From Spirochaetia bacterium (GTDB lineage Bacteria; Spirochaetota; Spirochaetia; DSM-27196; Salinispiraceae): a stretch of DNA of 45,683 nt. The position numbers were made by a program, and so were the translations under genes. Below are positions 12,235 to 36,178 of the stretch, piece by piece (the first letter of the stretch is position 1; each line of letters starts with the position of its first letter). Below the pieces are notes generated by a model. The model ran no database searches, was not told the DNA's origin, and worked only from the letters and a program-made list of their open reading frames with translations. The stretch spans positions 1-45,683 of the forward strand of contig JBBRCZ010000017.1 in NCBI GenBank assembly GCA_038204425.1, read 5' to 3'.

Positions 12235-12292
12235 GGGGGGACATTTGGGGACAGAGCTTCGCAGGGGGGACATTTGGGGACAGAGCTTCGCA
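12235..12292 (+). repeat. Perfect 2 x 29-bp tandem repeat, each unit carrying GGGGACAGAGCT
   Basis: GGGGGGACATTTGGGGACAGAGCTTCGCA at 12235-12263 and 12264-12292. Confidence 0.95.
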
Positions 12293-12345
12293 GGGCCCGA
12301 TGACCCTGCGTTTGAATGTATAAACTTTGTATTATGGATTTGTTT

Positions 12346-12386
12346 CTTTGGCGACTGCTTTGGGAGACTGCTTTGGGGACAGAGCT
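12346..12386 (+). repeat. Degenerate triple tandem ending in an exact 12-mer copy
   Basis: CTTTGGCGACTG / CTTTGGGAGACTG / CTTTGGGGACAGAGCT. Confidence 0.75.
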
Positions 12387-12429
12387 AAACTTCAACGTTT
12401 CAATTAGTGTTTAGCAGCCTTCGGAGACT

Positions 12430-13104
12430 TCAAAGATCCGTGCGCTTGGCAACCACACGAGATATCAGTCCGTACTTTTTGGCTTCTTCAGCCGAAAGCC
12501 AATAGTCTCGATCAGTATCTTTAGATACTTGGTCGATTGACTTTCCAGTTTCGTCTGCAATCATCTTGTTTATGCGCTCTCGTGTCTTTTCGATCTCTTT
12601 GGCATGAATTTCGATATCCGTCGCAACACCGCGCATGCCCGAAAGTGGTTGATGAATAAGGTAGTGACTATTAGGCAAGCCGACCCGACGTTCAGCAGGT
12701 GCAGCCAAGAGAATAAGTGCTCCTGCAGACGCGACTAAGCCCATTCCGATGGTCCATACTGGACAGGCCACAAATCGTATCATATCAAAAATGGCGTAAC
12801 CTGCGTCAACGTCACCACCGGGGGAGTCGATGAAGATCCTGATGTCATCGTTGCTTGTCGCTTCGAGTACCAAAAGACTGCGCACCACCCGTTCTGCAAG
12901 ATTTTTATCGACCACACCAGACAAAAGAATCGACCTTGTCTTGAGCATGCGCGCCATCAGCGGATCCATACCCGACTGTATTTTTTCTTCTGATTCTTCG
13001 GCTTCTTCCTCTCCATCGAGGCGAGCCCTGCTTTGTATCAACGCAACCTTTTCACTTGGTGCGTTAGAGACAAGAAATTGATTATTGTTCTTCACATGAT
13101 TCAT
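12430..13104 (-). CDS. clpP: ATP-dependent Clp protease proteolytic subunit
   Basis: IDSPGG, GLVASAG (catalytic Ser), LIHQP (His), DTDRDYWLSAEEAKKYGLI. Confidence 0.96.
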   Translation of the reverse strand: MNHVKNNNQFLVSNAPSEKVALIQSRARLDGEEEAEESEEKIQSGMDPLMARMLKTRSILLSGVVDKNLAERVVRSLLVLEATSNDDIRIFIDSPGGDVDAGYAIFDMIRFVACPVWTIGMGLVASAGALILLAAPAERRVGLPNSHYLIHQPLSGMRGVATDIEIHAKEIEKTRERINKMIADETGKSIDQVSKDTDRDYWLSAEEAKKYGLISRVVAKRTDL

Positions 13105-13112
13105 AATTCAAC

Positions 13113-13141
13113 AATATACTGCAGGAATGGAGTATATGCAA
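13113..13141 (-). promoter_or_regulatory. Putative sigma70 promoter of clpP
   Basis: Minus strand TTGCAT-17 bp-TATATT, ending 8 nt before the ATG at 13104. Confidence 0.5.
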
Positions 13142-13146
13142 AGCTT

Positions 13147-14172
13147 ATGAGTAAATCTGCCTTCGTCGCTATAGTAGGCCGTCCATCCGCCGGTAAAAGC
13201 ACTTTAATTAACGCCCTCTGCGCGCACAAAGTGTCTATAGTTAGCCCAGTTCCGCAAACCACGCGAAATACTGTCCGTGGCATTGTAACCAAAAACGATG
13301 ATCAATTGGTCTTCGTTGATACTCCTGGTTATCATCAATCCGAAAAAAAAATCAACAACCGTTTGGGAGGTCTCGTTAAGGGCAGTCTCGATGATGCGGA
13401 TCTTACCCTCTACGTAATTGACTCACAACGACCAGCGGGCGAAGAAGAAGAGCTTTTGGCCAAGCAAGTTATTAAGGCAGCTAAGCCAGTTATTGTTGCC
13501 TACAACAAATGCGACGTCGGCAGTTCACGTGCCGCACGAGAGTTTGTCGCGCAAATTTTTGCCGAGTCAACAACTGTAATAGCTAGTTCAGAAGAGCAAG
13601 AAGTAGATGAAGAAAAGAATGGGGACAGAGCTAAAAAACTGACCACCCAAGTTCCCGTTGGTGAATTTGACATTAGTGCAATAAATGGTGATGGTGTAAC
13701 AGAACTATCCCAATTCCTGTTTGACCTAGCGCCAGAAGGGCATGCGTGGTATCCTAGTGAGTACTACACAGATCAAGACCCCGAGTTTCGCATCGCAGAA
13801 ATAATCCGTGAACAAGTTATGAACAAAACGCGCGAAGAAATTCCGCATGCCGCCTACGTTGACATCGAGGATCTTCAAGTGGTTCTACCAGATGGTAGTC
13901 CTGCGCCAGCCGACTATGATGCGAGCCAAGCCTGGGAGCTACCCGTTAGTAAACGTCCGCGACTGCTTATCACGGCCGATATAATAATTGAACGTGAAAG
14001 CCAAAAGGGTATAGTAATCGGCAAGGGTGGCAGTTTAATCAAGAAGATTAGGGAGGAAGCAGAAAAAGAAATACGCGAACTCTTTCCTTACTATATTGAC
14101 CTAACACTACGTATAAAAGTCGACCCCAAATGGCGTGGAGACGACAAAATTTTGAGTAGGTTACTTCACTAG
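13147..14172 (+). CDS. era: GTPase Era with two lineage-specific insertions
   Basis: Start re-set to ATG 13147 (MSKSAFVAIVGRPSAGKST). PQTTR, DTPG, NKCD, ISA; KH domain IAEIIRE...ESQKGIVIGKGG. Confidence 0.96.
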   Translation: MSKSAFVAIVGRPSAGKSTLINALCAHKVSIVSPVPQTTRNTVRGIVTKNDDQLVFVDTPGYHQSEKKINNRLGGLVKGSLDDADLTLYVIDSQRPAGEEEELLAKQVIKAAKPVIVAYNKCDVGSSRAAREFVAQIFAESTTVIASSEEQEVDEEKNGDRAKKLTTQVPVGEFDISAINGDGVTELSQFLFDLAPEGHAWYPSEYYTDQDPEFRIAEIIREQVMNKTREEIPHAAYVDIEDLQVVLPDGSPAPADYDASQAWELPVSKRPRLLITADIIIERESQKGIVIGKGGSLIKKIREEAEKEIRELFPYYIDLTLRIKVDPKWRGDDKILSRLLH

Positions 14173-14202
14173 GTCAAAATCACTGGCTCAGGTTTTTTTG
14201 AC

Positions 14203-14976
14203 TTACTTGAGACGCGATTCCACTCGACCATCTTGATAGCCGATGTAGACTTGAGCCACTGGACAGGTAAATATTCCAACTTCCAAGACTCCAGGTAGTG
14301 ATTTAAGAAACCTCTCCGTGCTGGTTGGATTGAGCTCTGTCCCCAAAGGCAGGCCTTTGGGAAATCGCGCATCGAGAATATGGAGGCCATTGTCAGTTAG
14401 CAATGGCCCGATCTTTCCTGATCCTTCTCGAAGTGTAGCAACAGCTCCAAGTGATTCAACAACCCTCCGCACAGACTCTCGCGCCATTGGCATTATTTCA
14501 ATCGGTACTGCAAACGTGGAACCAAGTAAGTCGACGAGCTTGGTCTCATCGACTACCACAACAAATCTTTTGGCTCGGTGTTCAATTAGCTTTTCTCGAG
14601 CGTGGGCCGCGCCACCACCTTTTATTAAAAAACCTTGTGGGCTTACTTCGTCTGCCCCATCAAAGGCGAGATCAATACCTTGTGCAAACACTGCGTCATT
14701 CAACTCTCCAACATTGAGCCCCAAGGCCCTTGCGATATCATGTGACTGGGAACTTGTAGCTACACACAATGGACTATAGGTCAGACCAGCGTCGACCCAT
14801 GGACCTTTTTTCTCTTCGTTGGCGGTTGTAACAATTTGAGCCAGATATCTGATGCCCCAAATGGCGGTAGTTCCAGTTCCCAAGCCAATTAGAGCGGCTC
14901 TGTCCCTCGGAAGAAAGGCCAGCTCTCGATGGACCATGGTTTCGGCTACTATTTTTTTCAGTTCATTTGTTATCAT
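14203..14976 (-). CDS. rpiA: Ribose-5-phosphate isomerase A
   Basis: IGLGTGTT, DLAFDGADEV, IKGGGAAHAREK, VDETKLV, TDNG, PGVLEVGIF. Confidence 0.95.
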   Translation of the reverse strand: MITNELKKIVAETMVHRELAFLPRDRAALIGLGTGTTAIWGIRYLAQIVTTANEEKKGPWVDAGLTYSPLCVATSSQSHDIARALGLNVGELNDAVFAQGIDLAFDGADEVSPQGFLIKGGGAAHAREKLIEHRAKRFVVVVDETKLVDLLGSTFAVPIEIMPMARESVRRVVESLGAVATLREGSGKIGPLLTDNGLHILDARFPKGLPLGTELNPTSTERFLKSLPGVLEVGIFTCPVAQVYIGYQDGRVESRLK

Positions 14977-14997
14977 TGTTTGCCTTTTACCACGAAT

Positions 14998-17862
14998 TCA
15001 TTGACTAATTCCAGCTCTGTCCCCAAATATAGTCTGCCCATAGATGCGCAGGCCAAAATAGAAGTCGTTAATACTTAGTGGTTTGTTGATTAGAACGTCG
15101 GGACGGAACCGAAATCCTACGTGAAATTCCAAAGGTAGCTCAGAATAGAAGTATCTAGCCATGGTCAAAAACGCCAGTTCGGTGTCAATATAACCAACCC
15201 ACTCAGCCTGCCAGTCAGCGAATCCAATGCCACTAGAAAGAGAAATATACGCCGCCGTTCTATCAAAAGGGATGGACAACAGTCTATCGTCGATCATCGC
15301 CCCTTTTCCCATAAACCGAAGTTCTGCTCTAACGAATCCTTCGTACTCGGAAGTCGCCCAGAGGTCATTGAGTGGCCTGAACCAAGAAGCGGCAATAGAA
15401 CTTGGCGACCAAGAAGCTCCCAAATTCAATCCAAGAATTGCACTTCCAAGGTCAGATGCTAGTCTAAAATCCAGTCCTGACACCATTACCGACGACAAAT
15501 CCGTTGCTAAGGTCGAACCGGACACTCCCACCTTAAGCACCAGTCCTTCAGAATCAAAGACATCAAGAATAGCCCTCGGTGCTTTGTGATTCAAAGTGAG
15601 TGCTGCATTCCAATCAAATGACGTCTCTGGCTGAATTTCCAAACCATCAACAAAGTTGAAGCTCTGTCCCCGTTTACCTGTCCAGTTAGATACCAAGAGA
15701 ATGTCACCTTGCAATTTAGTAAGCTGACCCGTCGAACTAGAATCTGTAATAATCGGAAAGTTTGCCGCAAGCGAAGCAAATCTACGGCTATTCCACGTAA
15801 GTTCCGGCTCTTCATTAGATTCAACTTGGAAACGCTGGCTTGGGTAGTAGCTCTGTCCAAAGTTTAGTACCAGTCTAAGTCCAACAAATGAAATTGCGAG
15901 GCCTCCATGGACCTCCAACTGATTATGCTCTGGCAAAAAAAGTGCGCCAAAAGTGCTTTGAGTATGTCCTATCGCTGAAGCACCTTGCGTCGCAAATCCT
16001 ATTCCAAATCCAGCATTTGTATAAGATGGCAAGGGATACCAAACACTTGGCCAAGGAACGTCTATCAATTCACGCACGCTGCTTTCGATCGGAAAGTCAT
16101 AGCCGGCCACTACTAACTCTCCACGTTCAAAATAGCTCTTCCATATAATTTCTTGTTTCGTCAGATAGGAGGGCTTGATCTTAGAAAAACCGGGTACGGA
16201 TTCCAGGTTTAAATCACTAAGTGCTACTTGCTTGAGCCTAAGTCCATCCGCGGTCCATGTTGAATAGATGACTGACTCATCCAAAAAAATTGGATTCCAA
16301 GCACCGACGGGATCCAGCAAAAATCGAACAATCCCTTTCTCAGTAAACATATAGATTGCAATTTCGTCTTCTCGGTCAGATGAAAAGTAGAAATTGCCAT
16401 TTTTATCAAAAATTGGAGCAAATTCAAATGCTTGGTCGTGAGTTATTTGCTTTAGTCGGCCACTAGTAAGATCAAAGAGTGCAATGTCTGAATTGCCCGC
16501 TTCATTTAGGACTAAGCCCAGGGTGCCACCATCTGGCGAAAATACAATCTTTGTTACCGAAGGAAGTCCATCCATTGGTGAAATTCCACCACTATTTAGA
16601 TCTATCTCCACCATGCCCCAGTTGTCCGATTTTCTCTGAACCGCGAAGGCTCTCTTTCCGTCGGGGGACAGAGCTGGATTCAATAGCCCTCTGGCCAAAC
16701 CCAATCTCTTCACATCAACTACTGTATTTTTCGAATTCAAGGTGTACAGCATCAAATCAGCCTTCTGATATTCGATTTCCAAGCCACTAACGGAGGGTTC
16801 CGTTCTGGAGATCAGTACTTTGGAGCCGGCCTGATCGACAGACCAGGCTTGAATTTGCCCCCCAATTCCTTCAATCTGCTCAACTACCCCGTCTTGATTC
16901 AGAAATGCAAATGTGGTCGCTTGGTCGAGTCTCGCCATTCGAAAGAATATTCCGCGATCAGTGGCTCTTGGTTCCAACCACTGTTCTTGCATACCACTAT
17001 CTCTGGTGCCCATTATGAGTGCATTGTTTGGCCGATATTTTTCAGAAAATCGTTCCCGCGCATGCTGAACTATCTGGGACCAAAGTAGTTCTGGATCAAT
17101 TTGAAACACCTGCCTAATGGCGTGATCTTCGTTCATCAGTGGATGTTCCACTTGATACTTCCATAGTCGAGAGAAGCTACCCAATCCAAACGTCGTTTCT
17201 ACGTAGTCAACAAATAGCATGTGGCTCAAGTAAGGTCTAATTGCAGCACTACCCTTTAAGTTTGCGTGGGCAGCTTCCGCCCAACTCCACATGCGGTCCT
17301 CAAGAATAGCAGCCTTGTAGTACATTTCATTCCAAACGGAAGAACGGTTTCCATCCAGATAACTGGTAGTACCTTCTAACGAGTGCAAGCCAAGGACAAG
17401 ATTTGCACTGCGCACGTCTTTGCCGAATACATTAGAAACATCATAAAATAGTCCCCAAGGAGCCGAAGCTTGTGTGTAGTGTAAAAACTCATGCAAAAAA
17501 ACGCCGCGTGGATCCCGTTGTAAAGCGACACTGATACTGATCCTCATCGGCATTGGCGAAAAGAAACCACCCCAAGGAGGCATATCCTTAGAGCCTTGCA
17601 CAACCACAACTGGTTCCTCAGGAGATATATAGCCAAAAAATCCCGCGGCCACCGTCCTGACCCACAGTGCATATGAAGCGAGCTTTTTGGCAAAAAACTC
17701 ATCTTCTGTCCTATAGATGAACCTAAATCCATTTGACCTTAACTCCATCCAAGTTGTTTCAATTTTGGGGACAGAGCTCAAAATCTGAACTAGGCCAACG
17801 GGGACAGAGCTCAAAAATAACAACAAAAGTGCGCGCTTCCACATTTGTTTACCGTCCTTCAC
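14998..17862 (-). CDS. Exported protein: HEXXH metallopeptidase-like domain + TolB/PD40 beta-propeller + probable C-terminal beta-barrel
   Basis: Signal peptide; VFLHEFLHY...EG; PALSPDGKR, FSPDGGTL, FYFSSDR repeats; alternating aromatic beta-strands in the C-terminal ~350 aa. Confidence 0.7.
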   Translation of the reverse strand: MKDGKQMWKRALLLLFLSSVPVGLVQILSSVPKIETTWMELRSNGFRFIYRTEDEFFAKKLASYALWVRTVAAGFFGYISPEEPVVVVQGSKDMPPWGGFFSPMPMRISISVALQRDPRGVFLHEFLHYTQASAPWGLFYDVSNVFGKDVRSANLVLGLHSLEGTTSYLDGNRSSVWNEMYYKAAILEDRMWSWAEAAHANLKGSAAIRPYLSHMLFVDYVETTFGLGSFSRLWKYQVEHPLMNEDHAIRQVFQIDPELLWSQIVQHARERFSEKYRPNNALIMGTRDSGMQEQWLEPRATDRGIFFRMARLDQATTFAFLNQDGVVEQIEGIGGQIQAWSVDQAGSKVLISRTEPSVSGLEIEYQKADLMLYTLNSKNTVVDVKRLGLARGLLNPALSPDGKRAFAVQRKSDNWGMVEIDLNSGGISPMDGLPSVTKIVFSPDGGTLGLVLNEAGNSDIALFDLTSGRLKQITHDQAFEFAPIFDKNGNFYFSSDREDEIAIYMFTEKGIVRFLLDPVGAWNPIFLDESVIYSTWTADGLRLKQVALSDLNLESVPGFSKIKPSYLTKQEIIWKSYFERGELVVAGYDFPIESSVRELIDVPWPSVWYPLPSYTNAGFGIGFATQGASAIGHTQSTFGALFLPEHNQLEVHGGLAISFVGLRLVLNFGQSYYPSQRFQVESNEEPELTWNSRRFASLAANFPIITDSSSTGQLTKLQGDILLVSNWTGKRGQSFNFVDGLEIQPETSFDWNAALTLNHKAPRAILDVFDSEGLVLKVGVSGSTLATDLSSVMVSGLDFRLASDLGSAILGLNLGASWSPSSIAASWFRPLNDLWATSEYEGFVRAELRFMGKGAMIDDRLLSIPFDRTAAYISLSSGIGFADWQAEWVGYIDTELAFLTMARYFYSELPLEFHVGFRFRPDVLINKPLSINDFYFGLRIYGQTIFGDRAGISQ
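17767..17811 (+). repeat. Two direct copies of GGGGACAGAGCTCAAAA, 33 bp apart, in the 5' end of the 954-aa gene
   Basis: Copies at 17767 and 17800; encode LSSVP twice on the minus strand. Confidence 0.9.
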
Positions 17863-18604
17863 AACGCAGAATCAAATACGAAAGTTCGCCTTTCTTCGTT
17901 AAATTGATGATATGATCGCGGTAGAAGTCAACTAAGACGATTGGGTCAACTAAGCGCCTGATTTTGGTGTTTACCTGGCTCTGAACCGAATCTATCTTGT
18001 TCTTTAGCCGCTCTAGTATTCGTGCTTCGACATCTTGACGAGTAAGGGCACCAAGAACCCCTTCATAATCTTTATCTTCAACTAGTTTTTGATAACGACT
18101 TGGATCGGCCCTAAACTTGGATTCACTTATGTACAATGCCCCAAAATGAACGCGCCGAGCGATCGCCTGTAAGCAAAAGACATCCTGCTCAACGCTTGAG
18201 CCGTAGTGCCCATCATCGCCGCTTGGACATAAATCTACTAACATCAGTCTATAAGATTGTAACAAGTCAAAATTCTGGTTGATCACATTGAAGTCGCCGA
18301 TTTTAAACGCACTTTCAGCTTTGGGGGGGGTACGTTCAGGGATAGGCAGGTCATCAGTAAACGGGCGTTCTTCGGGCACCAAGAATCTTCCAAAAACTGA
18401 ATCCATTTGTTCTTGCATTGCAAGACGAATCTGAAACAAGCTTTTGTCGCCTCTAGAGGGAAAGCCTCCTCCACCGAGTAGGTAGGCGGGTCTATTCTCA
18501 GCAAATTGAGCACGATCGAGAAGACGGAAGATGATGCTCTCTTCAAGACTCTCAAGTACTGCTGCAACTCGATTCAAGTCAAAGACATCAAAAGGATACA
18601 TCAT
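17849..18604 (-). CDS. Chorismate mutase, eukaryote-type (Aro7/AroQ-beta-like)
   Basis: LESLEESIIFRLLDRAQF, GRFLVPEERPF, YGSSVEQDVFCLQAIARRVHFG..ISESKF, INLTKKGELSYL parallel yeast Aro7 motifs (EDSIIFKFIER; LQSLSRRIHFGKFVAEAKF). Confidence 0.85.
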   Translation of the reverse strand: MMYPFDVFDLNRVAAVLESLEESIIFRLLDRAQFAENRPAYLLGGGGFPSRGDKSLFQIRLAMQEQMDSVFGRFLVPEERPFTDDLPIPERTPPKAESAFKIGDFNVINQNFDLLQSYRLMLVDLCPSGDDGHYGSSVEQDVFCLQAIARRVHFGALYISESKFRADPSRYQKLVEDKDYEGVLGALTRQDVEARILERLKNKIDSVQSQVNTKIRRLVDPIVLVDFYRDHIINLTKKGELSYLILRCEGR

Positions 18605-18764
18605 AGTCTATATTATTACCCAAGAAGAGGCAAAAGTTAAGTACAAAGATTCAAAATCTAAGTAACATTGGATTTTGCCCAGGAAAAAGAGAGAGTCTTG
18701 GGGACAGAGCTAAAAAAAGACAATTGATTCAATCAGCTTTCCCAATTCCTCTGTAGAGTTTGTC

Positions 18765-19283
18765 ATGAGAAGAACCCGAACTCTGGCAACTGATGCCACG
18801 TATCACGTTACGATGAGAACAAATGGAAAGAAGCACACGCTTTTGGACCCTAAAACCAAAGAATTATACTTGCAGACTCTCAATCGGGCTAAAAAAAAAT
18901 ACAACTTCACTATATATAATTTTTGCATAATGAATAACCACGTACACTTTTTACTGCATCCACATAGTGATTCGAATCTTTCACGGATAATGCAGTGGAT
19001 CTCAAGTGTTTTTGCTATGGCATATAACCGCCAAGCTGGTGAATGTGGGCATTTTTGGGGAGAAAGGTTCTTTTCAAAAATTGTCAAATCGATTGCGGAT
19101 TTCGTGGCATTGTTTCGTTACATTAACGATAACCCGCTAAAGGCCGGCTTAGTTGCTGATTCTATTGATTGGCCTTTTGGTGCCTTGGGTCACCATCGAA
19201 AGGGTCTTTTCAATATTTCAGATGCGCCTGAGCCATGGTTGTTAGTACAATTTCCAGAACATAAAATTGTGTTTGCAGATTAG
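18765..19283 (+). CDS. REP-associated tyrosine transposase (RAYT)-like HUH/Y1 nuclease, IS200/IS605 superfamily
   Basis: YHVTMRTN, CIMNNHVHFL (HUH), GHFWGERF, RYINDNPLKAGL (catalytic Tyr + NP). No tnpB adjacent. Flanked by inverted 12-mer copies at 18700 (+) and 19556 (-). Confidence 0.9.
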   Translation: MRRTRTLATDATYHVTMRTNGKKHTLLDPKTKELYLQTLNRAKKKYNFTIYNFCIMNNHVHFLLHPHSDSNLSRIMQWISSVFAMAYNRQAGECGHFWGERFFSKIVKSIADFVALFRYINDNPLKAGLVADSIDWPFGALGHHRKGLFNISDAPEPWLLVQFPEHKIVFAD

Positions 19284-19555: not shown

Positions 19556-19597
19556 TGCTCTGTCCCCTATTGTTGTCCCCACCTATTGTTGTCCCCA
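19556..19597 (-). repeat. One-mismatch 12-mer copy followed by a perfect 2 x 16-bp tandem repeat, downstream of the RAYT-like gene
   Basis: TGCTCTGTCCCC at 19556-19567; CCTATTGTTGTCCCCA at 19566-19581 and 19582-19597 (TGTCCCC occurs three times). Confidence 0.85.
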
Positions 19598-19876
19598 ATT
19601 GTCGTTCACCCAAACGATGATCCCAGAAAGACTCATTTTTGGGGTTATATTTTTCTTGCCGTGCATTTTTGCTGACTATACGTTGGCAGCTGCCAAAGAT
19701 GCAAAACAGATCGCAAGACTATACCCTACAATTAATTAATCACTTTTTTAATGGGATCGGCTCCGCCCTAGAATTCTTTTGCGAATCAATCTTCTAAACA
19801 GTCTCAACGAAGTGACAGTTTTCTATTTAATGGCTTTGCTCGTCTGATTGTGATTGCGGCCAGTGTTTGTTTGGGG

Positions 19877-20482
19877 TCAGAGCTCATCGACAGTATTCAA
19901 CTCTGCCTTTCTAATACCCACCACCAAGCTACTGAACTCGGCAACTTTCCAGATACCTTGCGAGTTTTTCTTGAGGGTTAATGGTCTTGGCGAATCGGCT
20001 CCACTCGATCGTACGAACAAACGTATTGCACCATCATTTTGTTGACTGTAGTTGTTTCGACTAGTTTCTACTTCAACGGGAAAGCTTCCAATTTGATAGC
20101 CATTCGCCGGTGAAGTACCAGAAACATAAGAGTGCCCAACATGTGCGTTGTTATCTATTCTCTTGATCAAGTATTGTGCACTCGCACTTGGTTCAAACCC
20201 TTTATAGCCACCTTTGGAAGTCGGCCTTATTTGGGCGCTGTCATTCACTAGGATCACTGTAAAGAAATGCATACCCACAACGGGGTCTTGTCCATAGCGA
20301 ATCATAGCTACGACGAATAGCGCCGCCGCACCTTCTGGGGTCTGGCCTAAGCTTTCTCTAAGCTCTAGGTAATCTTCAATTGATTCAGGGATAGTATCAA
20401 TCTTGATCTTCAAAGCCTCTTGAGACCAGACTGCGGGAAAACACGACACCAATACGCAAATTATCGAGACTATTCTCTTCAT
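19877..20482 (-). CDS. Exported conserved hypothetical protein (DUF6935-like)
   Basis: Signal peptide; TPEGAAALFVVAM, SYVSGTSPANGY, SSGADSPRPLTL, WKVAEFSS; RBS AGGAG. Confidence 0.65.
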   Translation of the reverse strand: MKRIVSIICVLVSCFPAVWSQEALKIKIDTIPESIEDYLELRESLGQTPEGAAALFVVAMIRYGQDPVVGMHFFTVILVNDSAQIRPTSKGGYKGFEPSASAQYLIKRIDNNAHVGHSYVSGTSPANGYQIGSFPVEVETSRNNYSQQNDGAIRLFVRSSGADSPRPLTLKKNSQGIWKVAEFSSLVVGIRKAELNTVDEL

Positions 20483-20601: not shown

Positions 20602-21171
20602 ATGGCTATCACTTCAAAAAACGCTTCTCAATTCGTGGTTCCTACTATTGCTGGTCTCTTTTTGGTCTTTCTACGAATTTCCTCGTTTACACTTGGAGGA
20701 GGTTACGCAATGGTTGGCGTAATGGAAAGCAATCTCAAAAACAAACAGTGGATGAACGGGCTTGATTTTCTTGAGCTCTTCACCATCGCCCAGTCATTTC
20801 CGGGTGTTTTGGCGATCAATACGGCAGTAATTGTAGGTTGGCGACTAAGGGGCTTTTGGGGAGCAACGGCTGGATTTTTTGGCGTAATCATACCCCCTGT
20901 GATCATCATCAGCTTTTTAAGTCTATTCTACGAAAGCATTACCGAGTCAGAATATGCCCAAGCCTTTTTGCTAGGTATTTACGGAGCCATGGTAGGAATC
21001 GTAGCATCGTTAATCTACAAGATCATAAAGTCAAAGCGCTGGAATATCTTTACTTTGTTGGCGAGTTTGATGGGGACAGTGCTCTTGTCAATTTGGGCTG
21101 AATTGGCTCTACCGATATTCATTGTTTTGGTTTCGCTCGTCTACATGGGTACAAAAAAATGGATGCCATGA
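20602..21171 (+). CDS. chrA: Short-chain chromate transporter (CHR) subunit 1
   Basis: FTLGGGYAM, AQSFPG..AIN, G....GFWGA, IIPP motifs. Confidence 0.88.
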   Translation: MAITSKNASQFVVPTIAGLFLVFLRISSFTLGGGYAMVGVMESNLKNKQWMNGLDFLELFTIAQSFPGVLAINTAVIVGWRLRGFWGATAGFFGVIIPPVIIISFLSLFYESITESEYAQAFLLGIYGAMVGIVASLIYKIIKSKRWNIFTLLASLMGTVLLSIWAELALPIFIVLVSLVYMGTKKWMP

Positions 21172-21689: not shown

Positions 21690-21792
21690 GAGTTTTTTTG
21701 AGCTCTGTCCCCGTCGGCAGTTGTTTCCTCATCGACGGTGAAGTGCCCAGACTCTTCGTCATAGGCATTTTCCCGCCCCAAAGGACCTTCTA

Positions 21793-22272: not shown

Positions 22273-24131
22273 CTAGGAATGGCCTCTCGCTCAGCTAGTT
22301 CGTCAGTAGTGGGCTCATCCTCTCCAAAAAGGGGACAGAGCTCAAAACTAAAGTGCTGCTCCAATCCACGCATTTCATCTGAGTCGAACCAATGATACTC
22401 ACCTTGCGGGGCAATTTCCAGCCAGTGCTTCTTTTTGTCGCTGACAAGACAAGCTGTCAAAGGACTTGCTTGCCTACGATCAGCGACGAGCAACTGCAGA
22501 CTAAGGCCTTGGTGGCCAAGCTCAGGCACGGTCCAAGCAAAAATCCATTTGGTTCCGGTAAAGAGTGCACCTTGTTGAACCGATCGCGGCCTAAGCATAG
22601 TCTCGCATTCTGCATCGAGATGTCGCCAGCGGACAGAAACTGGGCTATGATTGAGTGGTAACGCTATTCGCAATCGATAGGGCACAAAGGATTCAACAAA
22701 GCTTCTATGTCTAAAATGCGGGTACTTCAAGTGTAACTCAAAGAAAAGTTGCTCACAGCGATCGGTCAAAAAATAGTCGGCTGAAAGTCTACCAGCTTCT
22801 TCTATCTCATTATCTCTCATGTTCATGATGTGGCTAATACCACGACTGTGGTCAGTTTCAAACGAGACGGCACTCTCGGTATCCCAAGAATATTCTATGC
22901 CTTTGACCAAACAAGCGCCATTCTGACTGGTGTCAAGTTCAATCTCATGACTATTGGTCTTAAGCAGGCAGGGAAAGCCACCATTAAACCCAACTTGGTA
23001 GCTATTGCCTATCATGGTCGCTATTCCATGCATGCTTGCGTACAAGTTTCTGCTCCGGTTTTTTGGTTTCACTGGCTTGTGCGTTGTCCTAGTAAATTCC
23101 CCATAACGCAGTTGATCAAAGCTACTATTGATGCTTTTGGCGCTGCTGGGTGGCGGCAAATAATCAGGTCTGATTGCCAATAGCTGTGATCTTATACGTT
23201 CTGAGACAGAGGACCTTGTGGACCTGAGTTCACCACAAGCAAAAAGTCTTTGGCGCAGATGAGCCCCGTTTGGTGTCTGGCAACGCGCAAATGGGTTTAA
23301 GGCGGCTGGAGATGCGATAGCATTTCCATCAGGATATAGTTGACACGCCAGTCCTTGCGGACGATTGTCAAATAAATAGCCCTCTGCGAGAAGTTTGTTA
23401 AAAACTTCGCTCAAACCAAGCAAAACAGGTGCGTCATTTGTGTCAGTTTGCGCAAAATTGTGATAATCAAGCATGACCATCAGCGATGGAAACTCGGGAT
23501 TTTGATCCTTTGCGAAGCTTGCCAAAAGCTTATTGATCCATTTTTTAAGTTCCTTGATATCCTTGTTATTGAGAACCCTCAAACACGGAATTAGCTCGCT
23601 TTCAAGACCAGATGCCACCACCACAAACTCTCTTGCCTTTGCGTCCGTTCCAATGCCCAGACCACAGCGTCCGAAGCTTTCTAGAGCCGCCTGTGTGGCA
23701 CTCATGCGATGGGGGTCAGGCCAGAACGGTAGAATCAAAGAGTGAACACCACCAAATACGTCTCTAAAACCAGTTTTCCAAGGATTTGAAATCGCCCACT
23801 CCGCTTCATACTTGATTTCTTCTTGACTAAGCAGAGCGTGGACTGATCCAGCATACCCAGCCGGAATAATGTCAAGTTTGCCCTTTCCAGAAAGCTCAAT
23901 CATGCGATTGAGGGTCTCCGGACTGATGGCTGAGGCGCCTTCTGTTGGATCTAGTGTACCCAAACGAGCCTTAGCCCATGAGGCTGGCAAGTCCTTGTTT
24001 ACCATATGTAGTAGCACCACACTTGACTCTGGCAACTTGGCTGCTTCAAGTTCGTCCAGTAGCGCTTCAAGCTGCTTGCTTTGGTATACAGAGATAACAA
24101 TATGCAAACGGATTCTCTTGGCAGTTTTCAC
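22254..24131 (-). CDS. Hypothetical protein; N-terminus weakly resembles a GH57/GH38-type glycoside hydrolase/deacetylase barrel
   Basis: 625-aa ORF; GKLDIIPAGYAGSVHALLSQEEI resembles the GH57 'E..gg.y.hp.l.ll' region; beta-rich C-terminus. The functional call is weak. Confidence 0.55.
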   Translation of the reverse strand: MKTAKRIRLHIVISVYQSKQLEALLDELEAAKLPESSVVLLHMVNKDLPASWAKARLGTLDPTEGASAISPETLNRMIELSGKGKLDIIPAGYAGSVHALLSQEEIKYEAEWAISNPWKTGFRDVFGGVHSLILPFWPDPHRMSATQAALESFGRCGLGIGTDAKAREFVVVASGLESELIPCLRVLNNKDIKELKKWINKLLASFAKDQNPEFPSLMVMLDYHNFAQTDTNDAPVLLGLSEVFNKLLAEGYLFDNRPQGLACQLYPDGNAIASPAALNPFARCQTPNGAHLRQRLFACGELRSTRSSVSERIRSQLLAIRPDYLPPPSSAKSINSSFDQLRYGEFTRTTHKPVKPKNRSRNLYASMHGIATMIGNSYQVGFNGGFPCLLKTNSHEIELDTSQNGACLVKGIEYSWDTESAVSFETDHSRGISHIMNMRDNEIEEAGRLSADYFLTDRCEQLFFELHLKYPHFRHRSFVESFVPYRLRIALPLNHSPVSVRWRHLDAECETMLRPRSVQQGALFTGTKWIFAWTVPELGHQGLSLQLLVADRRQASPLTACLVSDKKKHWLEIAPQGEYHWFDSDEMRGLEQHFSFELCPLFGEDEPTTDELAEREAIPSYFVQN

Positions 24132-26078: not shown

Positions 26079-26084
26079 GGCAAT

Positions 26085-27848: not shown

Positions 27849-27851
27849 GGT

Positions 27852-30228: not shown

Positions 30229-30242
30229 CAGTCTTACCTACC

Positions 30243-31646
30243 TTAGCTTCGTTTGACACGCATTAGCTGCGCTTTTCCAAGTCGTATATAGTCGAGTATG
30301 CCGCGTTTGGCTGGGCACACATAGCTGCAACTCCCACATTCTACACAATCTCTAATTGCGTGTTTCTCTGCCTCTTCTAGCCGTCCAAGACCTACTAATT
30401 TTTCTAGTAAATAAGGCTCGAGTCCCATTGGGCAGACCGAAACACAGCTGGCGCAGCGAATACATGCACCAACAGCCTGACGACTATGCTGCTCACCTTG
30501 CAAAACAAGAATTCCTGAACAGCCCTTAGTGACCGGTACGTCTAAGCTGGTTAACGTTTTTCCCATCATCGGACCACCAAGGATTACCTTAGTGTTGCTA
30601 CTTGGAACAAAGCCAAGTTCTTGCAAAACTTCGCGCACGAGCATCCCAATTCTAATTTTGTAGTTACCGGGCCTAGCTATACCATCGCCGGTTACCGTCA
30701 CTATGCGCTCAACCATTGGTTTGTGTTTTTGCACAATTTTGTAGGCCGAATGGGCTGTTGCAACGTTGTTTACAATTACGCCAACATCGAGTGGTAGCTT
30801 TCCGGAGGGCACCTCTCGACCAAGAATTGCCTCTATAAGCTGTTTTTCGGCGCCTTGTGGATATTTGACTTTGAGAGCAATAACGGCGATATAACCAGCC
30901 CGACTTGGATTGTCAGAGGGCCCGGCCTTGGCCTTCATGTGCGCCTGAAGAAAGCCTTTTGGGGGTGAAAGGCCCATGGCGTCTATCGTTTGCCGCAAAA
31001 TCTTGATAGCGTCTGCTTTGTTTTCTTCAACGCCAATGATGGCAAGCTTGACCCCCAAGGTAAAACGCAATAAGTTGGAACCAAGGACGACTTCCTCTGG
31101 GCGCTCCAGCATCAAACGGTGGTCGCTGGTTAGATAAGGTTCGCACTCAACGCCGTTTATAAGAAGTGTATCTACTGATCTTCCTGGTGGCACCAAATAC
31201 TTGACCCGGGTCGGAAACGTGGCGCCACCTTTACCGACCAGCCCCCCGTCGTTAATTTTGTCAGTAATCTGATCTGGGCTATAATCAATACTTTTGACCA
31301 AATCAAAATTGCGGACTATGCCTTCTTCCCAGTTGTCGCCATCTCTTTTGATTAGGACTGCCGGTTTTCTAAAGCCGCCAGCGTCAAGAACCGTGTCAAC
31401 TTTGATCACCGTGCCAGAAACCGAGGAATGAACAGGTGCTGAAATCATGCCCTGCCCTTTGGCAATCAAGGTACCAACCTTAACAAGATCGCCTTCCTTG
31501 ACCAAAACTTGGGCAGGGCTACCAATATGTTGAATAAGAGGAATCCAAACCGTTGCTGGCAGTATCATATTCTCAATTGGTCTGTCGGCAGTAAGCTTAT
31601 GATCATGGGGATGCATACCGCCTTTGGAAAAAGTCATGCTCTTCAT
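30243..31646 (-). CDS. rnfC: Rnf complex subunit C
   Basis: QHIG, GKGGATFPT, NGVECEPYLTSD, YPQGAEK, GGPMMG, two 4Fe-4S motifs. Confidence 0.95.
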   Translation of the reverse strand: MKSMTFSKGGMHPHDHKLTADRPIENMILPATVWIPLIQHIGSPAQVLVKEGDLVKVGTLIAKGQGMISAPVHSSVSGTVIKVDTVLDAGGFRKPAVLIKRDGDNWEEGIVRNFDLVKSIDYSPDQITDKINDGGLVGKGGATFPTRVKYLVPPGRSVDTLLINGVECEPYLTSDHRLMLERPEEVVLGSNLLRFTLGVKLAIIGVEENKADAIKILRQTIDAMGLSPPKGFLQAHMKAKAGPSDNPSRAGYIAVIALKVKYPQGAEKQLIEAILGREVPSGKLPLDVGVIVNNVATAHSAYKIVQKHKPMVERIVTVTGDGIARPGNYKIRIGMLVREVLQELGFVPSSNTKVILGGPMMGKTLTSLDVPVTKGCSGILVLQGEQHSRQAVGACIRCASCVSVCPMGLEPYLLEKLVGLGRLEEAEKHAIRDCVECGSCSYVCPAKRGILDYIRLGKAQLMRVKRS

Positions 31647-32524
31647 GCTTGCACCTCAGTTACTAAAGCATCAATACTGTTCAATTTAGATTTTACTAGT
31701 TCAAAACTTGTCATTATAGCCGCTGTGGGACAGACCGGAACGCACTTTCCACACGCTATGCATTTATCTGGATCTAATTGCGCCAAATTGTTGACCAAGC
31801 TAATTGCGCCAACGATGCCTTCGCAAACCTTGACGCATTTAGCGCAGCCAATGCAGGCTTTGTCGCAATTTTTGCGAGCGAGTGCACCTTTTTCGGTGCT
31901 GCTGCAGTTGATCCAAACCCGTCGTTCGCGCTTACCGAGCCCGCGCAAAAAGAAAAGTGTACGCGGACAAACCTTTAGACATGCACCACAACCCGTACAC
32001 TTTTGGGCATCAATTTCTGGCAGGCCAGTTTTTGCATTCATACTTAAAGCATCAAACTTGCATACATCAACACAATCACCTTGACCGAGGCAGCCAAAGC
32101 TACAGCCTCCTTCACCGGCAAACAAGCCATGACTGACCGTACAGCTGACTGGCCCTTGATAGTGGACTTTGGTACTTGAGGCCTGACAGCTTCCTCCGCA
32201 ACGCAAGACAGCTATCACTTTTTCAGCCGACGAGGTTTGTAGGCCAAAGTAGGCACCAATACCGTCCATCACAGGCTGGCCGCCTGGTGGGCATCTCAGA
32301 TCTGCTAGGTCGCCTTTGTCGGCAGCCTTTAGCAAGGCACTGGCAAAGCCACCGCAACCTGCAAAACCACAGGCACCGCAATTGATCCCTGGCAGCAATG
32401 CTTGGACGTCCACTTGCCGTTCATCACCGATGACGACAAATTTTTTGCTTACAAAAAAAAGGATAAGAGCAAGTAGAGCCGCAGTTGCGCCCAAACTAAG
32501 CATAGCAATCAGTACACTATTCAT
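31643..32524 (-). CDS. rnfB: Rnf complex subunit B
   Basis: LPGINCGACGFAGC, CPPGG, multiple CxxCxxCxxxC ferredoxin motifs. Confidence 0.95.
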   Translation of the reverse strand: MNSVLIAMLSLGATAALLALILFFVSKKFVVIGDERQVDVQALLPGINCGACGFAGCGGFASALLKAADKGDLADLRCPPGGQPVMDGIGAYFGLQTSSAEKVIAVLRCGGSCQASSTKVHYQGPVSCTVSHGLFAGEGGCSFGCLGQGDCVDVCKFDALSMNAKTGLPEIDAQKCTGCGACLKVCPRTLFFLRGLGKRERRVWINCSSTEKGALARKNCDKACIGCAKCVKVCEGIVGAISLVNNLAQLDPDKCIACGKCVPVCPTAAIMTSFELVKSKLNSIDALVTEVQA

Positions 32525-32538: not shown

Positions 32539-33006
32539 TTAGCGACTCTGATTTTCAGACGAAGCAAGAATCACAAACTCAAAATGATGCGCAATTTTTT
32601 TGCGCAGGGGATAGAGCATAGAAAAGTAAACTACCAAAAGGCCAAGACTTATTAGCCCACCTATAAGCTCTGTCCCCAAAAAATAGTTGGCAATTAATAG
32701 CCCCGAGCAAAGCAAAACGATCGGTACGACAAAAACCAGAGCTAACGCCAGCGTTGTATGTTTACTTGCGCTTGCCAATGTAAGCTGTTCACCTATTGCA
32801 AATTGGGTTTTGGACTTCACTTCAATAATTGTGCCTTTGTTTTTATTGAGGCCGGCATGGCACCCGCTTTGTCGAGCATTGCAAGATCCACAGCTCGTTG
32901 GTACAGAAACCAAGATCTGAACTAAGCCAGAACCACACGACTGTACTACGCCTCGGTAGTAACTAGTATCATCTTTGGGGACAGAGCTCTCAGCAGTGCA
33001 TTCCAT
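32539..33006 (-). CDS. rseC: RseC/MucC family protein
   Basis: SCGSCNARQSGC Cys motif plus two C-terminal TMs, immediately upstream of rnfB. Confidence 0.8.
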   Translation of the reverse strand: MECTAESSVPKDDTSYYRGVVQSCGSGLVQILVSVPTSCGSCNARQSGCHAGLNKNKGTIIEVKSKTQFAIGEQLTLASASKHTTLALALVFVVPIVLLCSGLLIANYFLGTELIGGLISLGLLVVYFSMLYPLRKKIAHHFEFVILASSENQSR

Positions 33007-33149: not shown

Positions 33150-33178
33150 TTGAGATGGCCATATCTTTGTTCTATACT
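33150..33178 (+). promoter_or_regulatory. Putative sigma70 promoter giving a leaderless SDR transcript
   Basis: TTGAGA-17 bp-TATACT, ATG 6 nt later at 33185. Confidence 0.55.
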
Positions 33179-33184
33179 GGTCTT

Positions 33185-33952
33185 ATGTCATTTATTATCG
33201 TAACTGGTGCCACATCTGGCATTGGCAGAGCTTACGCTCTCTTGCTTGCAAACAAGGGCTATGACCTTGTCCTATGTGGCCAACGAAGCACTCAATTGGA
33301 AGAACTTGCCCAAACCATACGCCAAAAATTTGGACGGCAAGTTGATACACAAATCGGTGACCTCGCTGATCCTCAATTCCAAAATGCAGTAATTGCTAAG
33401 GGACAGAGCTTGCCGCTCGGTGGTCTGATCAACAATGCAGGATTTGGGACATCAGACTTGTTTGTAACTGATGCTTTTGAAAAGCAATATAAAATGATGG
33501 AAGTTCATTGTCACGCCCCTATGAAGCTCTGTCACGCGCTCATCCCTCAGCTGCTCGGAAAAAAAGGTTTTGTGATCAATGTTGCAAGTATGGCAGCCGA
33601 CTTGCCGGTGCCCCGGGCCGCTATCTATGCCGCCAGCAAAGCAGCACTTCTAAGATTTAGCGAGGTTCTTGACCTGGAGCACATCCAAGATGATCTTATG
33701 GTCCAGTGTCTAATGCCAGGTTTCACCAAAAGCGACTTTCATGGTCGCCTTGACCATTTTGAACAAGCTACAAAGAGCAAGGGCCTAATTAGGTGGCTTA
33801 CGGCAGACCAAGTTGTTCAGAACTCTTGGAAGAGGCTAAAGAAAGGTCGCGTTCGGGTAATCACGGGCTTGGTTAATCGATTGGTGCTCTATCCGTTGAG
33901 AAGGCTGCCATGGTGCCTTTACCGGCTGATAGCCGGCTCACAAAAAATATAA
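33185..33952 (+). CDS. Short-chain dehydrogenase/reductase
   Basis: TGATSGIG, NNAGFG, YAASK; start re-set to ATG 33185. Confidence 0.92.
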   Translation: MSFIIVTGATSGIGRAYALLLANKGYDLVLCGQRSTQLEELAQTIRQKFGRQVDTQIGDLADPQFQNAVIAKGQSLPLGGLINNAGFGTSDLFVTDAFEKQYKMMEVHCHAPMKLCHALIPQLLGKKGFVINVASMAADLPVPRAAIYAASKAALLRFSEVLDLEHIQDDLMVQCLMPGFTKSDFHGRLDHFEQATKSKGLIRWLTADQVVQNSWKRLKKGRVRVITGLVNRLVLYPLRRLPWCLYRLIAGSQKI

Positions 33953-33955
33953 ATT

Positions 33956-35029
33956 TTAGCGACTGCTTGTTTGTTTGGCTCTACGTTTACGCACCGCTGC
34001 CGCCAAGTCTTCCAGCAGAGGCACGGTCTGATCCCATGAAAGACAGGCGTCGGTAATGCTTTGCCCGTAGACCAATGCAGCGCCAGGTTTCAATGTTTGG
34101 TTACCGGCAACAATGTTGCTTTCAATCATGACACCAAAGATCTGCTGACTTCCTTGTTCAAACTGCGCCACCACATCTTGCACAACCAAAGCTTGTTTGG
34201 TGTGATCCTTCTGACTGTTGCCATGGCTACAATCAACCATGAGCCGGGGACGTAGTTCGGCCTGAGCCAAGGCAGCGCTTGCCTTTTCCACGCTGACCAA
34301 ATCGTAGTTGGTCGCACCAGAAGAACCTCGCAAAATAATATGACAATAGTCATTGCCGCTAGTGGCAACAATTGCGGCCACCGATTGCTTAGTAACCGAC
34401 AAAAAATGATGAGGAATCTTGGCTGCATGAATAGCATCGATAGCAATCTTAACATTGCCGTCGGTGCCATTCTTAAACCCAACTGGCATAGATAATCCAG
34501 AAGCTAGTTCTCTATGGATTTGGCTTTCAGTAGTTCGAGCTCCAATGGCGCCCCAGGAAATTGTATCGGCCAAAAATTGTGGACTTATGGTGTCCAAAAA
34601 CTCACAGGCAGTTGGCAGACCAAGGCCAACAAGCTCAACCAACAAGCCTCTTGCGATATGCAGGCCCTTGTTAATCTGAAAACTGTCATCCAAAAAGGGA
34701 TCATTGATTAATCCCTTCCAACCGTTGCGCGTACGGGGTTTCTCAAAATAAACACGCATCACTATTTCCAGATCGGCGGATAGCTTATTGCGCACACTTG
34801 CCAAGCGCTGTGCATAGTCTAAAGCAGCTGTAACATCGTGTATTGAACACGGTCCGACAACTACCACCAGCCGGTCATCGGCACCGTCCATGATGGCTTC
34901 TATGGCTTGGCGGCTGTCAGAAACTAGTTGCTGACCCTGCTCGGTTAGAGGTAGTTCTTCCATCAAAATGGCGGGCGGAATAAGTGGTTTAATATCTCGT
35001 ATACGTAAATCGTCAATTCGTGAATGCAT
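33956..35029 (-). CDS. aroG: DAHP synthase, class I-alpha (AroF/G/H type)
   Basis: VGPCSIHD, RVYFEKPRT, GWKGLINDP, IGARTTESQ, DCSHGNS, YGQSITDAC; start re-set to 35029. Feedback specificity is not determinable. Confidence 0.93.
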   Translation of the reverse strand: MHSRIDDLRIRDIKPLIPPAILMEELPLTEQGQQLVSDSRQAIEAIMDGADDRLVVVVGPCSIHDVTAALDYAQRLASVRNKLSADLEIVMRVYFEKPRTRNGWKGLINDPFLDDSFQINKGLHIARGLLVELVGLGLPTACEFLDTISPQFLADTISWGAIGARTTESQIHRELASGLSMPVGFKNGTDGNVKIAIDAIHAAKIPHHFLSVTKQSVAAIVATSGNDYCHIILRGSSGATNYDLVSVEKASAALAQAELRPRLMVDCSHGNSQKDHTKQALVVQDVVAQFEQGSQQIFGVMIESNIVAGNQTLKPGAALVYGQSITDACLSWDQTVPLLEDLAAAVRKRRAKQTSSR

Positions 35030-35083
35030 GGCACTACCATTTACGATTGGACGCATGATTGTCAATATGCTACGTTCACAGAC

Positions 35084-36178
35084 ATGGACAGCATTGCTCA
35101 CTTCTCAAGCCACCTTGCACATTTTCCGTTGCCAAGCAGCCAAAATGGGCCGTTATTGTTCAGCGCACCCCTTGCCGGTCTCAGTCATGGCGCGATGCGC
35201 TGCTTATGGCAAGAACTTACAGGCCCTGATGTTTACTTCTCAGAAATGATTAGCGCTGACGCCCTTGAAGCTCGTTCTCCCTACACATCCGCCTATTTAG
35301 ATACCGCTCCCGACAGTTCCCGTCTTATCTATCAGCTGGTAGGAGCGAGTCAATCATCGATTATCACGGGCATAGATAGGCTAGTCGAACACACTATTGT
35401 GCTCAGGCAAAGTGAGGCAAATGCGATTCTCGGTATAGACCTAAATATGGGCTGCAGCGCACCAGACATTGTACGTAAGGGTTCAGGCATCGCTTGGATG
35501 GAAAAGCCCGCCGATGCTGCCGAGTTGGTAAAAAAAGCAGTTTCTCACCTCAAACTCGACAAATTTTGTCTATCAGTCAAACTACGACTGGGAAAGTCAG
35601 TTGATTCAGACTACCTCTTTAAGTTTTGCCATGCGATAGAGACTGCGGGGGCAAGTTTCATTACGCTCCATGCTCGGATCAAGGACGACCCATGGGCACG
35701 GCCTGCCAAATGGTCACAAATTGCTCCACTGGCACGTGCGCTCAATATACCCGTCGTCGTTAACGGTGATCTTCAGGACCAAACAAGTCTTGAGGCTTTT
35801 TATGCTGTTTGGGGACAGAGCTCAAATTGGGGACAGAGCTCAATTCAAAGCGCCAAAAATCCAGCAGGGTTAATGATGGGGCGCGGTGCCATTACTCGAC
35901 CCTGGATTTTTTCTCAAATTTCCAGGCAGTTTGTCAAACCAGTGCAAGCCTTGGATCGACTCGCTATCGCCAAGCGTTTCCATCAACTCTTGGAACTGCG
36001 ACAACCAAAAGATTTTTGGCTCAGCCGCGCCAAACGTTTTTATGCATACTATTGTTTATCGCTCAATTTTGGCAATCGACTTTCGGGCGCAATTGGCAAT
36101 CTGAAAGACTACCGAGAAATTGAAAACCTTGTCGAAGCTTATCTAGCTAAAAGTAAAGAGCGCTTTACTTTTAGCTAG
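35084..36178 (+). CDS. tRNA-dihydrouridine synthase family protein
   Basis: APLAG, SEM, IDLNMGC, SVKLRLG, TLHAR, NGD, MMGRGA..PWIF; start re-set to 35084. Confidence 0.9.
   Translation: MDSIAHFSSHLAHFPLPSSQNGPLLFSAPLAGLSHGAMRCLWQELTGPDVYFSEMISADALEARSPYTSAYLDTAPDSSRLIYQLVGASQSSIITGIDRLVEHTIVLRQSEANAILGIDLNMGCSAPDIVRKGSGIAWMEKPADAAELVKKAVSHLKLDKFCLSVKLRLGKSVDSDYLFKFCHAIETAGASFITLHARIKDDPWARPAKWSQIAPLARALNIPVVVNGDLQDQTSLEAFYAVWGQSSNWGQSSIQSAKNPAGLMMGRGAITRPWIFSQISRQFVKPVQALDRLAIAKRFHQLLELRQPKDFWLSRAKRFYAYYCLSLNFGNRLSGAIGNLKDYREIENLVEAYLAKSKERFTFS
35809..35844 (+). repeat. In-frame 2 x 18-bp tandem repeat of the 12-mer inside the Dus gene
   Basis: TTGGGGACAGAGCTCAAA TTGGGGACAGAGCTCAAT encoding WGQSSN-WGQSSI. 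Confidence 0.93.

Follow-up and report, generated by a model that had tools for sequence, protein, structure and literature searches.

The window analysed here is the whole 45,683-nt contig JBBRCZ010000017.1 (C17) of a Spirochaetia bacterium (GCA_038204425.1). It carries a gene for a short Y1/HUH tyrosine transposase of the RAYT type at 18765-19283, and the 12-nt word GGGGACAGAGCT accumulates around this gene as a local halo. The gene and the word almost certainly form one system. We lean towards the reading that the enzyme writes the halo itself, as a cis-acting single-stranded DNA (ssDNA) nuclease which would nick the site and copy it onto partly matching sites nearby. This reading is favoured because the word and the gene co-occur, the word piles up near the gene, and copies inside genes are retained only at loci that have it.

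Distribution of the word in the window and the source genome

An exact match count found 17 copies of GGGGACAGAGCT in the window, 12 on the plus and five on the minus strand, between 12247 and 35840 (Table 1). None occurred in any of 100 shuffled windows, and the expectation under an order-5 Markov model is 0.002 copies for the window and 0.12 for the genome. With one mismatch allowed there were 22 copies (17 exact and five one-mismatch) against 0.12 expected. Thirteen of the 17 exact copies lie within 12.2-22.3 kb, and 12 are inside open reading frames (ORFs): era, rpiA, a PD40/TolB-like gene (five copies), a 625-aa ORF, rseC (two) and dus (two); three of these 12 (17767, 17800 and 32977) fall in N-terminal stretches downstream of predicted start codons only. 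The intragenic copies, one-mismatch ones included, occupy five of the six frame and strand phases. All copy numbers of the initial annotation, including its shares near the gene and inside genes, were reproduced on recount. The AT-rich flanks that it described (TTT-core-CAA) are seen as a bias in the source genome, but are not a feature of the family profile.

Logan contigs from three runs of two studies, one of which is possibly the source of the window, were compared over 12000-31900, a range that leaves four exact copies beyond 31.9 kb. There were zero substitutions at motif sites, and the sole indel was one 29-bp motif-bearing tandem unit missing from run X2.

The source genome (24 contigs, 2.84 Mb, 95.6% complete) contains 22 exact copies: 17 in the window, one on C20, two on C13 and two on C8; 20 of the 24 contigs carry none. 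The window makes up 1.6% of the genome, and the binomial P of this concentration is 8e-27. Contigs C17, C20, C13 and C11 form one scaffold through 141-bp end overlaps, with ORFs crossing both junctions that were checked, and this scaffold holds 20 of the 22 copies. Out to 250 kb along it, the exact copies per 10 kb with growing distance from the RAYT gene were 8, 10, 4, 2.1, 0.5, 0.25, 0.12 and 0, the 8-10 lying within 5 kb of the gene and the 0.12 at 80-160 kb. A contig partner for the left end of the window, sought to place the two C8 copies, was not found. The halo is patchy, because two stretches hold no copy: the first 12 kb, with the type II secretion operon, and 22.4-32.6 kb, with the groEL-rnf block. 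The proposal of a tag across the chromosome was not borne out; the word is a local halo of 22 copies in 2.84 Mb that thins with distance.

The DNA uptake sequences (DUS/USS), offered as an alternative in the initial annotation, are short intragenic words in several frames, spread genome-wide in hundreds to thousands of copies with no adjacent cognate transposase. The present word is also short, non-palindromic and intragenic, occupies many frames and is conserved at silent sites, which would suit an uptake signal or a genome-wide signal such as Chi or KOPS. However, it is local, with so few copies that most contigs lack it, it has no polarity (12 plus and five minus here, mixed in the genomes G050 and G229), and there are 0-2 copies in each of 40 relatives. 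The uptake signal is therefore excluded, and Chi or KOPS are ruled out by the same genome-wide count, which leaves readings of this kind with next to no probability.

A draft genome with copies concentrated on one contig might also point to an assembly or binning artefact, in which a foreign contig came from a word-rich genome. C17 belongs to the genome, because the only era, groEL and rpiA are found there and its tetranucleotide composition is ordinary. It also overlaps C20 exactly, three runs reproduce the stretch, and the closed genomes G050 and G229 show the same halo. An artefact was ruled out on these grounds, and its probability is negligible.

The Y1/HUH transposase gene

The proposed link of the word to a RAYT-like HUH nuclease is supported. 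The product of 18765-19283 has the Pfam domain Y1_Tnp and no other, scores 99 bits against NCBIfam REP_Tyr_transpos (cut-off 80), and is encoded by the only PF01797 gene of the source genome. Its predicted structure (pLDDT 94.7) has E. coli TnpA-REP (4ER8) as the top fold match (TM about 0.73-0.76). All 109 aligned relatives share residues H59, H61 and Y119, and the protein carries the signatures NNHVH and YINDNP. Named relatives at 43-51% identity are proteins from Treponema and other Spirochaetota; 90% of 138 relatives, as translated in this analysis, are 161-182 aa long. The RAYT gene was not found in seven of seven genomes of the same family, and in a quick tree the protein is on a long branch of unsure placement, outside the clade holding most RAYTs of its order. 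Plasmids and viral contigs yielded no close relative, with best matches of 39% and 32%, respectively. A promoter role for the copy at 18700 was rejected: no sigma-70-like site was found there, and 18550-19950 contains two such sites against 2.9 expected. The RAYT gene is adjoined by a chorismate mutase gene (17849-18604, minus strand), whose best-scoring model is the plant/yeast-type TIGR01802 (156.7 bits, under the cut-off of 170.9).

Co-occurrence of word and enzyme in relatives

A hand count was made over 57 genomes of the order, whose members are kin and not independent. At least 25 GGGGWCRGAGS words were found in 18 of 19 RAYT-positive genomes (median 79) and in 5 of 38 RAYT-negative ones (median 15), the latter being the 38 of 57 in which no such RAYT gene was found. 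The initial annotation had named equal abundance in relatives lacking RAYT, together with a protein that neither binds nor nicks the word, as the result that would break the link; the counts show the opposite of equal abundance, and the link stands. Around 78 non-redundant related loci, word density is about 1 per kb up to 7.5 kb away, with a peak of 7.5 per kb just upstream of the gene, and no word falls inside the matched part of the RAYT gene; reversed words, used as control, stayed at or below 0.05 per kb. A copy lies at most 400 bp upstream of RAYT in 72 of the 78 loci (two are without, four are too short). The family profile of the word is RGGGWCRGWSSH, with no flank pairing.

The word type also follows the enzyme. 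In a quick tree of 109 of the 138 proteins, those having a dominant word, all 29 CGGAG loci fell in one clade of 32 rows (SH-aLRT 97), and hosts ranging from about 37 to 68% GC carry the same words. Residues 99 and 103 best separate the two word types, residue 99 being G in 77 of 80 and Y in 28 of 29. Residue 99 aligns with Q95 of TnpA-REP, and the region around Q95 has been tied to GTAG reading (PMC6006769). A strict specificity switch at this residue (G99/Y) was rejected, since three CAGAG loci within the CGGAG clade have Y, H or I and the residue is confounded with one clade.

More distant RAYT relatives (L180, L182, L198, L199 and L203) carry other words, GGGGACAGGGC, GGTGTCAGA, ACACAGAGGA and TGGCACAGAGCT, which are useful as natural specificity variants. 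Two variants coexist at the metagenome loci L069, L075, L079 and L089, GGGACAGAGC being dominant just upstream of the gene and GGGACAGACC in the halo. At L192 (G432:C2, 584-585.5 kb) the RAYT gene is tandemly duplicated; motif copies delimit the 1,059-bp period, and one RAYT copy is broken by a stop and a frame change.

The halo in other genomes

On sequence comparison, the halo is general among related single-RAYT genomes and acts in cis. In the complete genome G050, 32 of 40 copies lie within 100 kb of RAYT. The complete genome G229 has 25 of 39 within 20 kb in an exact-word search that counts this word or its A-start variant; the figures are 17 of 24 within 20 kb for G427 and 12 of 15 within 23 kb for G017. 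Pooled over G050, G229, G427 (minus two copies on another contig) and the C17 scaffold (minus the two C8 copies), the density declines about 250-fold across 320 kb, with 12.5 copies per 10 kb at the start and 0.05 at the end. The best fit to this decay was a shifted power law with a 5-kb plateau (Akaike information criterion 2400), followed by an exponential with background (2407) and a pure exponential (2454).

In eight genomes the syntenic region lacks RAYT and contains 0-1 word over its 16-40 kb, whereas five regions that have the gene contain 12-39. In G055, which encodes two such RAYTs at other places, the genome-wide total is 104 words, yet the syntenic 39.6 kb has only three. Each of the three RAYTs of G248 is ringed by its own word within 10 kb (17/0/0, 8/0/0 and 8/1/0). 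The RAYTs at G248:C1 2,102-2,122 kb and 3,446-3,466 kb (L219 and L220) have their own 13-nt quasi-palindromes, GGTGACWGTCACC and GGTGCCWGGCACC, and these suggest that the present word belongs, as an asymmetric member, to a quasi-palindromic family.

Copies inside genes

Orthologues of 70-97.5% nucleotide identity were aligned by codon, which yielded 119 site groups, a few of them duplicates or low-complexity misalignments. A gap-free empty orthologue was available for 53 groups; 33 had gapped partners only, 27 were conserved only, and six were conserved or gapped. The peptide was unchanged in 10 of the 53 empty-versus-filled comparisons and changed in 43. Against syntenic RAYT-less orthologues, 60 of 75 site pairs were gap-free and none of the 60 came within one base of the word, whereas 83 of 95 gap-free pairs did so when the partner has the gene at the locus. 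Fourfold-site identity was 0.34 inside the word and 0.35 beside it for RAYT-less partners, a neutral pattern, and 0.96 inside versus 0.68 beside with the gene at the locus; with one pair per site (160 sites) the contrast was still 0.82 versus 0.47. Empty sites, a class defined by at least two differences, differ from the word at 4.0 of 10 bases.

In the window, the rpiA and rseC copies are length-neutral and the era and dus copies sit within insertions. Several gap-free copies are synonymous recodings of the conserved peptides GSVP, ASVP, GTEV and RGRR. Distant copies have the core alone in common, with no donor flank, and close pairs are direct in 198 of 239 cases and inverted in 41. Between close relatives there are 10-22 bp insertions with an end at the word or close to it. 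Of 157 copies, 105 are in ORFs, at 71% ORF cover. The coding strand holds 239 copies and the template strand 134, a small excess over two-mismatch controls (1584 versus 1108). No clear depletion of near-matching sites was found in halos (8 versus 17 at two mismatches in G050, the others at or above control). Truncated copies, as a clue to the cleavage point, gave a hint only: GGGACA prefixes were 15 against 8.1 expected, in one of 18 comparisons, and the effect was unseen for the other two words.

The motif had been described as lacking a hairpin. This agrees with the folding of 10 stretches, none of which gave a stable structure (best z -2.2), and with the absence of flank complementarity. 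Per-copy flank complementarity was also absent in five registers and five word types, and Rfam gave no structured RNA match.

Possible origin of the halo

If the enzyme writes the halo, the gene at 18765-19283 would encode a cis-acting TIRYT-type HUH nuclease, catalytically intact by its residues, with the word (RGGGWCRGWSSH) as its predicted recognition site. The enzyme, made beside its own gene, would bind the word in transient ssDNA and nick it via a 5'-phosphotyrosine, releasing a 3'-OH. Strand transfer or priming from this 3'-OH might then copy the core onto partly matching sites close in space, leaving either a replacement of unchanged length or a short in-frame insertion or tandem duplication. 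The copies would stay exact at silent positions through repeated correction. Purifying selection would eliminate harmful events, so that the survivors would lie in loops, termini and synonymous-compatible codons. The known chemistry of TnpA-REP includes cleavage of ssDNA between C and T, a phosphotyrosine link and a reusable 3'-OH (PMC8266576), and bacterial transposases are described as acting in cis (PMC6182136).

Exact copies could also be kept by selection on a functional site array. A domesticated enzyme would bind the word, and the host would gain from many sites near the gene, by local chromosome organisation, fork or R-loop processing, or autoregulation; point mutation would supply the sites and selection keep them, as argued for HIP1, where the same signature was read as selection (PMC5861425). 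The fourfold sites held where the gene is present, the excess limited to 0-2 mismatches, the near-invariant position of the upstream copy and the vertical inheritance at fixed loci all agree with such an array. However, the halo accompanies the gene into unrelated gene contexts and is rebuilt round each paralogue with a different word, most of the empty-versus-filled comparisons (43/53) alter the peptide, and tandem duplications and indels cluster at copies; moreover, the catalytic residues are invariant and the gene is not seen in most genomes of the order (38/57). The site array is thus considered unlikely, though it keeps an appreciable chance.

Local hopping of tiny non-autonomous elements with terminal inverted repeats (TIRs) is less probable still. 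The copies would be short motif-bearing inserts, and their length-neutral look would come from later trimming or old insertions. The 10-22 bp insertions between close relatives and the era and dus copies fit this explanation, and TIR families were described as REP-like by Di Nocera (PMC3733652). It is at odds with the 60 of 75 gap-free pairs with RAYT-less orthologues, with the several synonymous recodings, and with the lack of a donor flank at distant copies.

Several observations weigh against the writing of the halo by the enzyme. The RAYT-bearing partners are closer (84% versus 68% nucleotide identity) and the pairs are not independent, and silent-site conservation suits selection equally well. 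Gapped partners only were found for 33 of the 119 site groups, and the era and dus copies of the window sit in insertions. Identity inside the word is about 0.6, barely under the local flanks (0.6-0.79), and a one-step multi-base conversion is something that we infer; no significant junction signature was found at the copies. The word list was derived from the same loci in which it was counted, with the reversed words as control. The draft genomes G043 (90 words) and G049 (87) yielded no Y1 gene, G248 has orphan word clusters without a RAYT remnant, and some RAYTs have a thin halo (e.g. G382 C7, three words in 20 kb). GGTGACWGTCACC and GGTGCCWGGCACC are densest at the gene in G248, but largely genome-wide (89 matches). 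Rearrangements alone could produce the long tail of the halo. The data do not separate the enzyme-driven conversion that we favour from selection on binding sites, which is less likely but has an appreciable chance, or from trimmed micro-insertions, which have a smaller one.

Comparison with known systems

The pairing, put forward as a candidate new system, is not wholly new. In 2013, Di Nocera et al. (PMC3733652) gave the name TIRYT/TIRtron to RAYT-like genes with GGGGWSAS repeats on either side. The little-studied TIRYT corresponds to TnpA-Y1 subclass 2.1, or RAYT group 1 (Quentin et al. 2018, PMC6006769). The present locus is similar in having a RAYT-like Y1 HUH gene with the catalytic Tyr, bracketed by non-REP repeats with no REP hairpin. 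GGGGACAG at 18700 and 19556-19567 exactly fits GGGGWSAS, and the NHVH and YxxxNP signatures also occur in this protein. TIRtrons have long TIRs, whereas the inverted bracket here spans just 11 of the 12 core bases; the inverted (+/-) layout is found in 18 of 35 related loci having both neighbours. NNHVH and YINDNP match the subclass 2.1 signatures NHVH / NH[YF]H and YxxxNP; however, the W[EQ]/FQ motif, SS motif, C-terminal helix-turn-helix tail and median 238 aa of that subclass are replaced by WG, no SS, no such tail and 172 aa. Judged from its sequence, the protein works like TIRYT without being a canonical subclass 2.1 member, because the tail is missing despite the 2.1 catalytic signatures. 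The strings Treponema and Spirochaet- were absent from two supplements of PMC6006769. Group 1 RAYTs are reported to be adjoined by only mildly repeated 16-mers (PMC5581495).

REP/REPIN systems (REP, repetitive extragenic palindrome) with RAYT (TnpA-REP; PDB 4ER8; PMC8266576, PMC5581495) also have a single-copy, vertically kept HUH transposase of the same fold and a cognate dispersed repeat. In contrast to those of RAYT groups 2 and 3, this word has no hairpin and its motif profile no GTAG foot; close pairs are direct rather than inverted, copies also lie in genes (12/17 in the window), and there are tens of local copies instead of hundreds genome-wide. IS200/IS605 elements have YxxxQ, near-identical multiple copies and subterminal hairpins, whereas the present gene is single-copy with YxxxNP, and the transpos_IS200 profile gave 34.8 bits, under the cut-off of 55. 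HIP1 of cyanobacteria (PMC5861425) is likewise a short word in genes, in several frames and conserved at silent sites; however, it is genome-wide with no adjacent cognate transposase, whereas the halo is confined round the enzyme gene. Ssn/NTS-SRM (Chenal et al. 2025, PMC11893778) also ties a small nuclease gene to its own repeat, and sequence-specific ssDNA cutting would be the analogue; Ssn is, however, an unrelated enzyme of GIY-YIG fold with a repeat in hundreds of copies.

A distance-decaying halo, intragenic length-neutral copies and a cis requirement were not found in the excerpts of the TIRYT and subclass 2.1 literature (PMC3733652, PMC6006769), nor elsewhere in a search covering few subscription journals. 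In that search, TIRYT turned up in these two papers only, and GGGGWSAS in one. The pairing is already known, and the cis-limited, intragenic, length-neutral halo is the part not found described in these sources.

Features and neighbouring genes of the window

Table 1. RAYT gene and copies of the word in the window
Position	Strand	Feature	Remarks
12247..12287	+	Exact copies at 12247 and 12276, intergenic, in a 29-bp tandem unit	One unit absent in run X2
12375..12386	+	Exact intergenic copy after clpP	Motif search
13621..13632	+	Exact copy in era, peptide GDRA	Inside ~28-30 aa segment missing from 6/6 family orthologues
14333..14344	-	Exact copy in rpiA, peptide LGTEL	Variable loop; length equal to 5/7 orthologues, other 2 have two extra residues
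15013..17811	-, -, +, +, +	Five exact copies (15013, 15660, 16664, 17767, 17800) in 954-aa PD40/TolB-like gene	Four phases
18700..18711	+	Exact copy 54 bp upstream of RAYT start	Motif search
18765..19283	+	Short class-2 Y1/HUH tyrosine transposase, RAYT/TIRYT-like, 172 aa	H59-x-H61 and Y119 intact
19556..19567	-	One-mismatch copy downstream of RAYT, inverted relative to 18700 (TIRtron-like bracket)	Preceded on minus strand by two partial GGGGACA units
19873..19884	+	Variant GGGGTCAGAGCT overlapping DUF6935 gene stop	One mismatch
21072..21083	+	Variant GGGGACAGTGCT in chromate transporter gene	One mismatch
21701..21712	-	Exact intergenic copy	Motif search
22331..22342	+	Exact copy near C-terminus of 625-aa ORF	Motif search
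32666..32988	-, +	Two exact copies in rseC (32666, 32977)	32666 copy aligns gap-free to 5/5 orthologues
33399..33410	+	Variant AGGGACAGAGCT in short-chain dehydrogenase/reductase (SDR) gene	One mismatch
35811..35840	+	Two exact copies 18 bp apart in dus	Inside 16-aa segment missing from 2/2 orthologues
38335..38346	-	Variant GGGGACAGAGCA in ACPS gene	One mismatch

In the region at 1-11756 (minus strand), a type II secretion-like operon with secretin, E, F and G precedes several ORFs without a Pfam family; the first ORF of the region has no match in seven family genomes, and the region has zero word copies although it is only 7-19 kb from RAYT. Era (13147-14172) has an acidic insertion of ~28-30 aa in the GTPase domain, which contains one word copy and is missing from six family orthologues. 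From 38144 to 45683 and on into C20 there are genes for ACPS, a ketosynthase, a FabA-like protein, an aminotransferase, an enoyl reductase and two enoyl-CoA hydratases, and an HMG-CoA synthase-like gene; judged by Pfam, the set resembles a cluster for polyketide beta-branching or for an unusual lipid. In G000, the right end of C14 and the left end of C21 carry a CRISPR-like repeat (10 copies, presumably type I-C-like), which is the source of the top 16-mers of that genome.

Implications

There is as yet no settled account of how RAYT-type enzymes spread their repeats, and for the large REP-less group (TIRYT, subclass 2.1) no mechanism is described in the excerpts of PMC3733652 and PMC6006769. 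In the present system the linear site is minimal at 12 nt, specificity varies naturally and the spatial footprint can be measured, which makes the question of repeat spreading testable with oligonucleotides and a reporter. As a tentative generalisation, which may well prove wrong, domesticated HUH transposases might act as cis-limited sequence writers that move no element. Partial matches near the gene, codons of core genes included, would be turned into a private 11-13-nt word, with the reach set by chromosome contact frequency and the specificity partly by the strand that reads GTAG in TnpA-REP. If near-matching sites are indeed overwritten, neighbouring proteins would be recoded by a mutational drive that is local and directed by the enzyme, and the enzyme could possibly serve as a small sequence-specific ssDNA nicking or writing tool.

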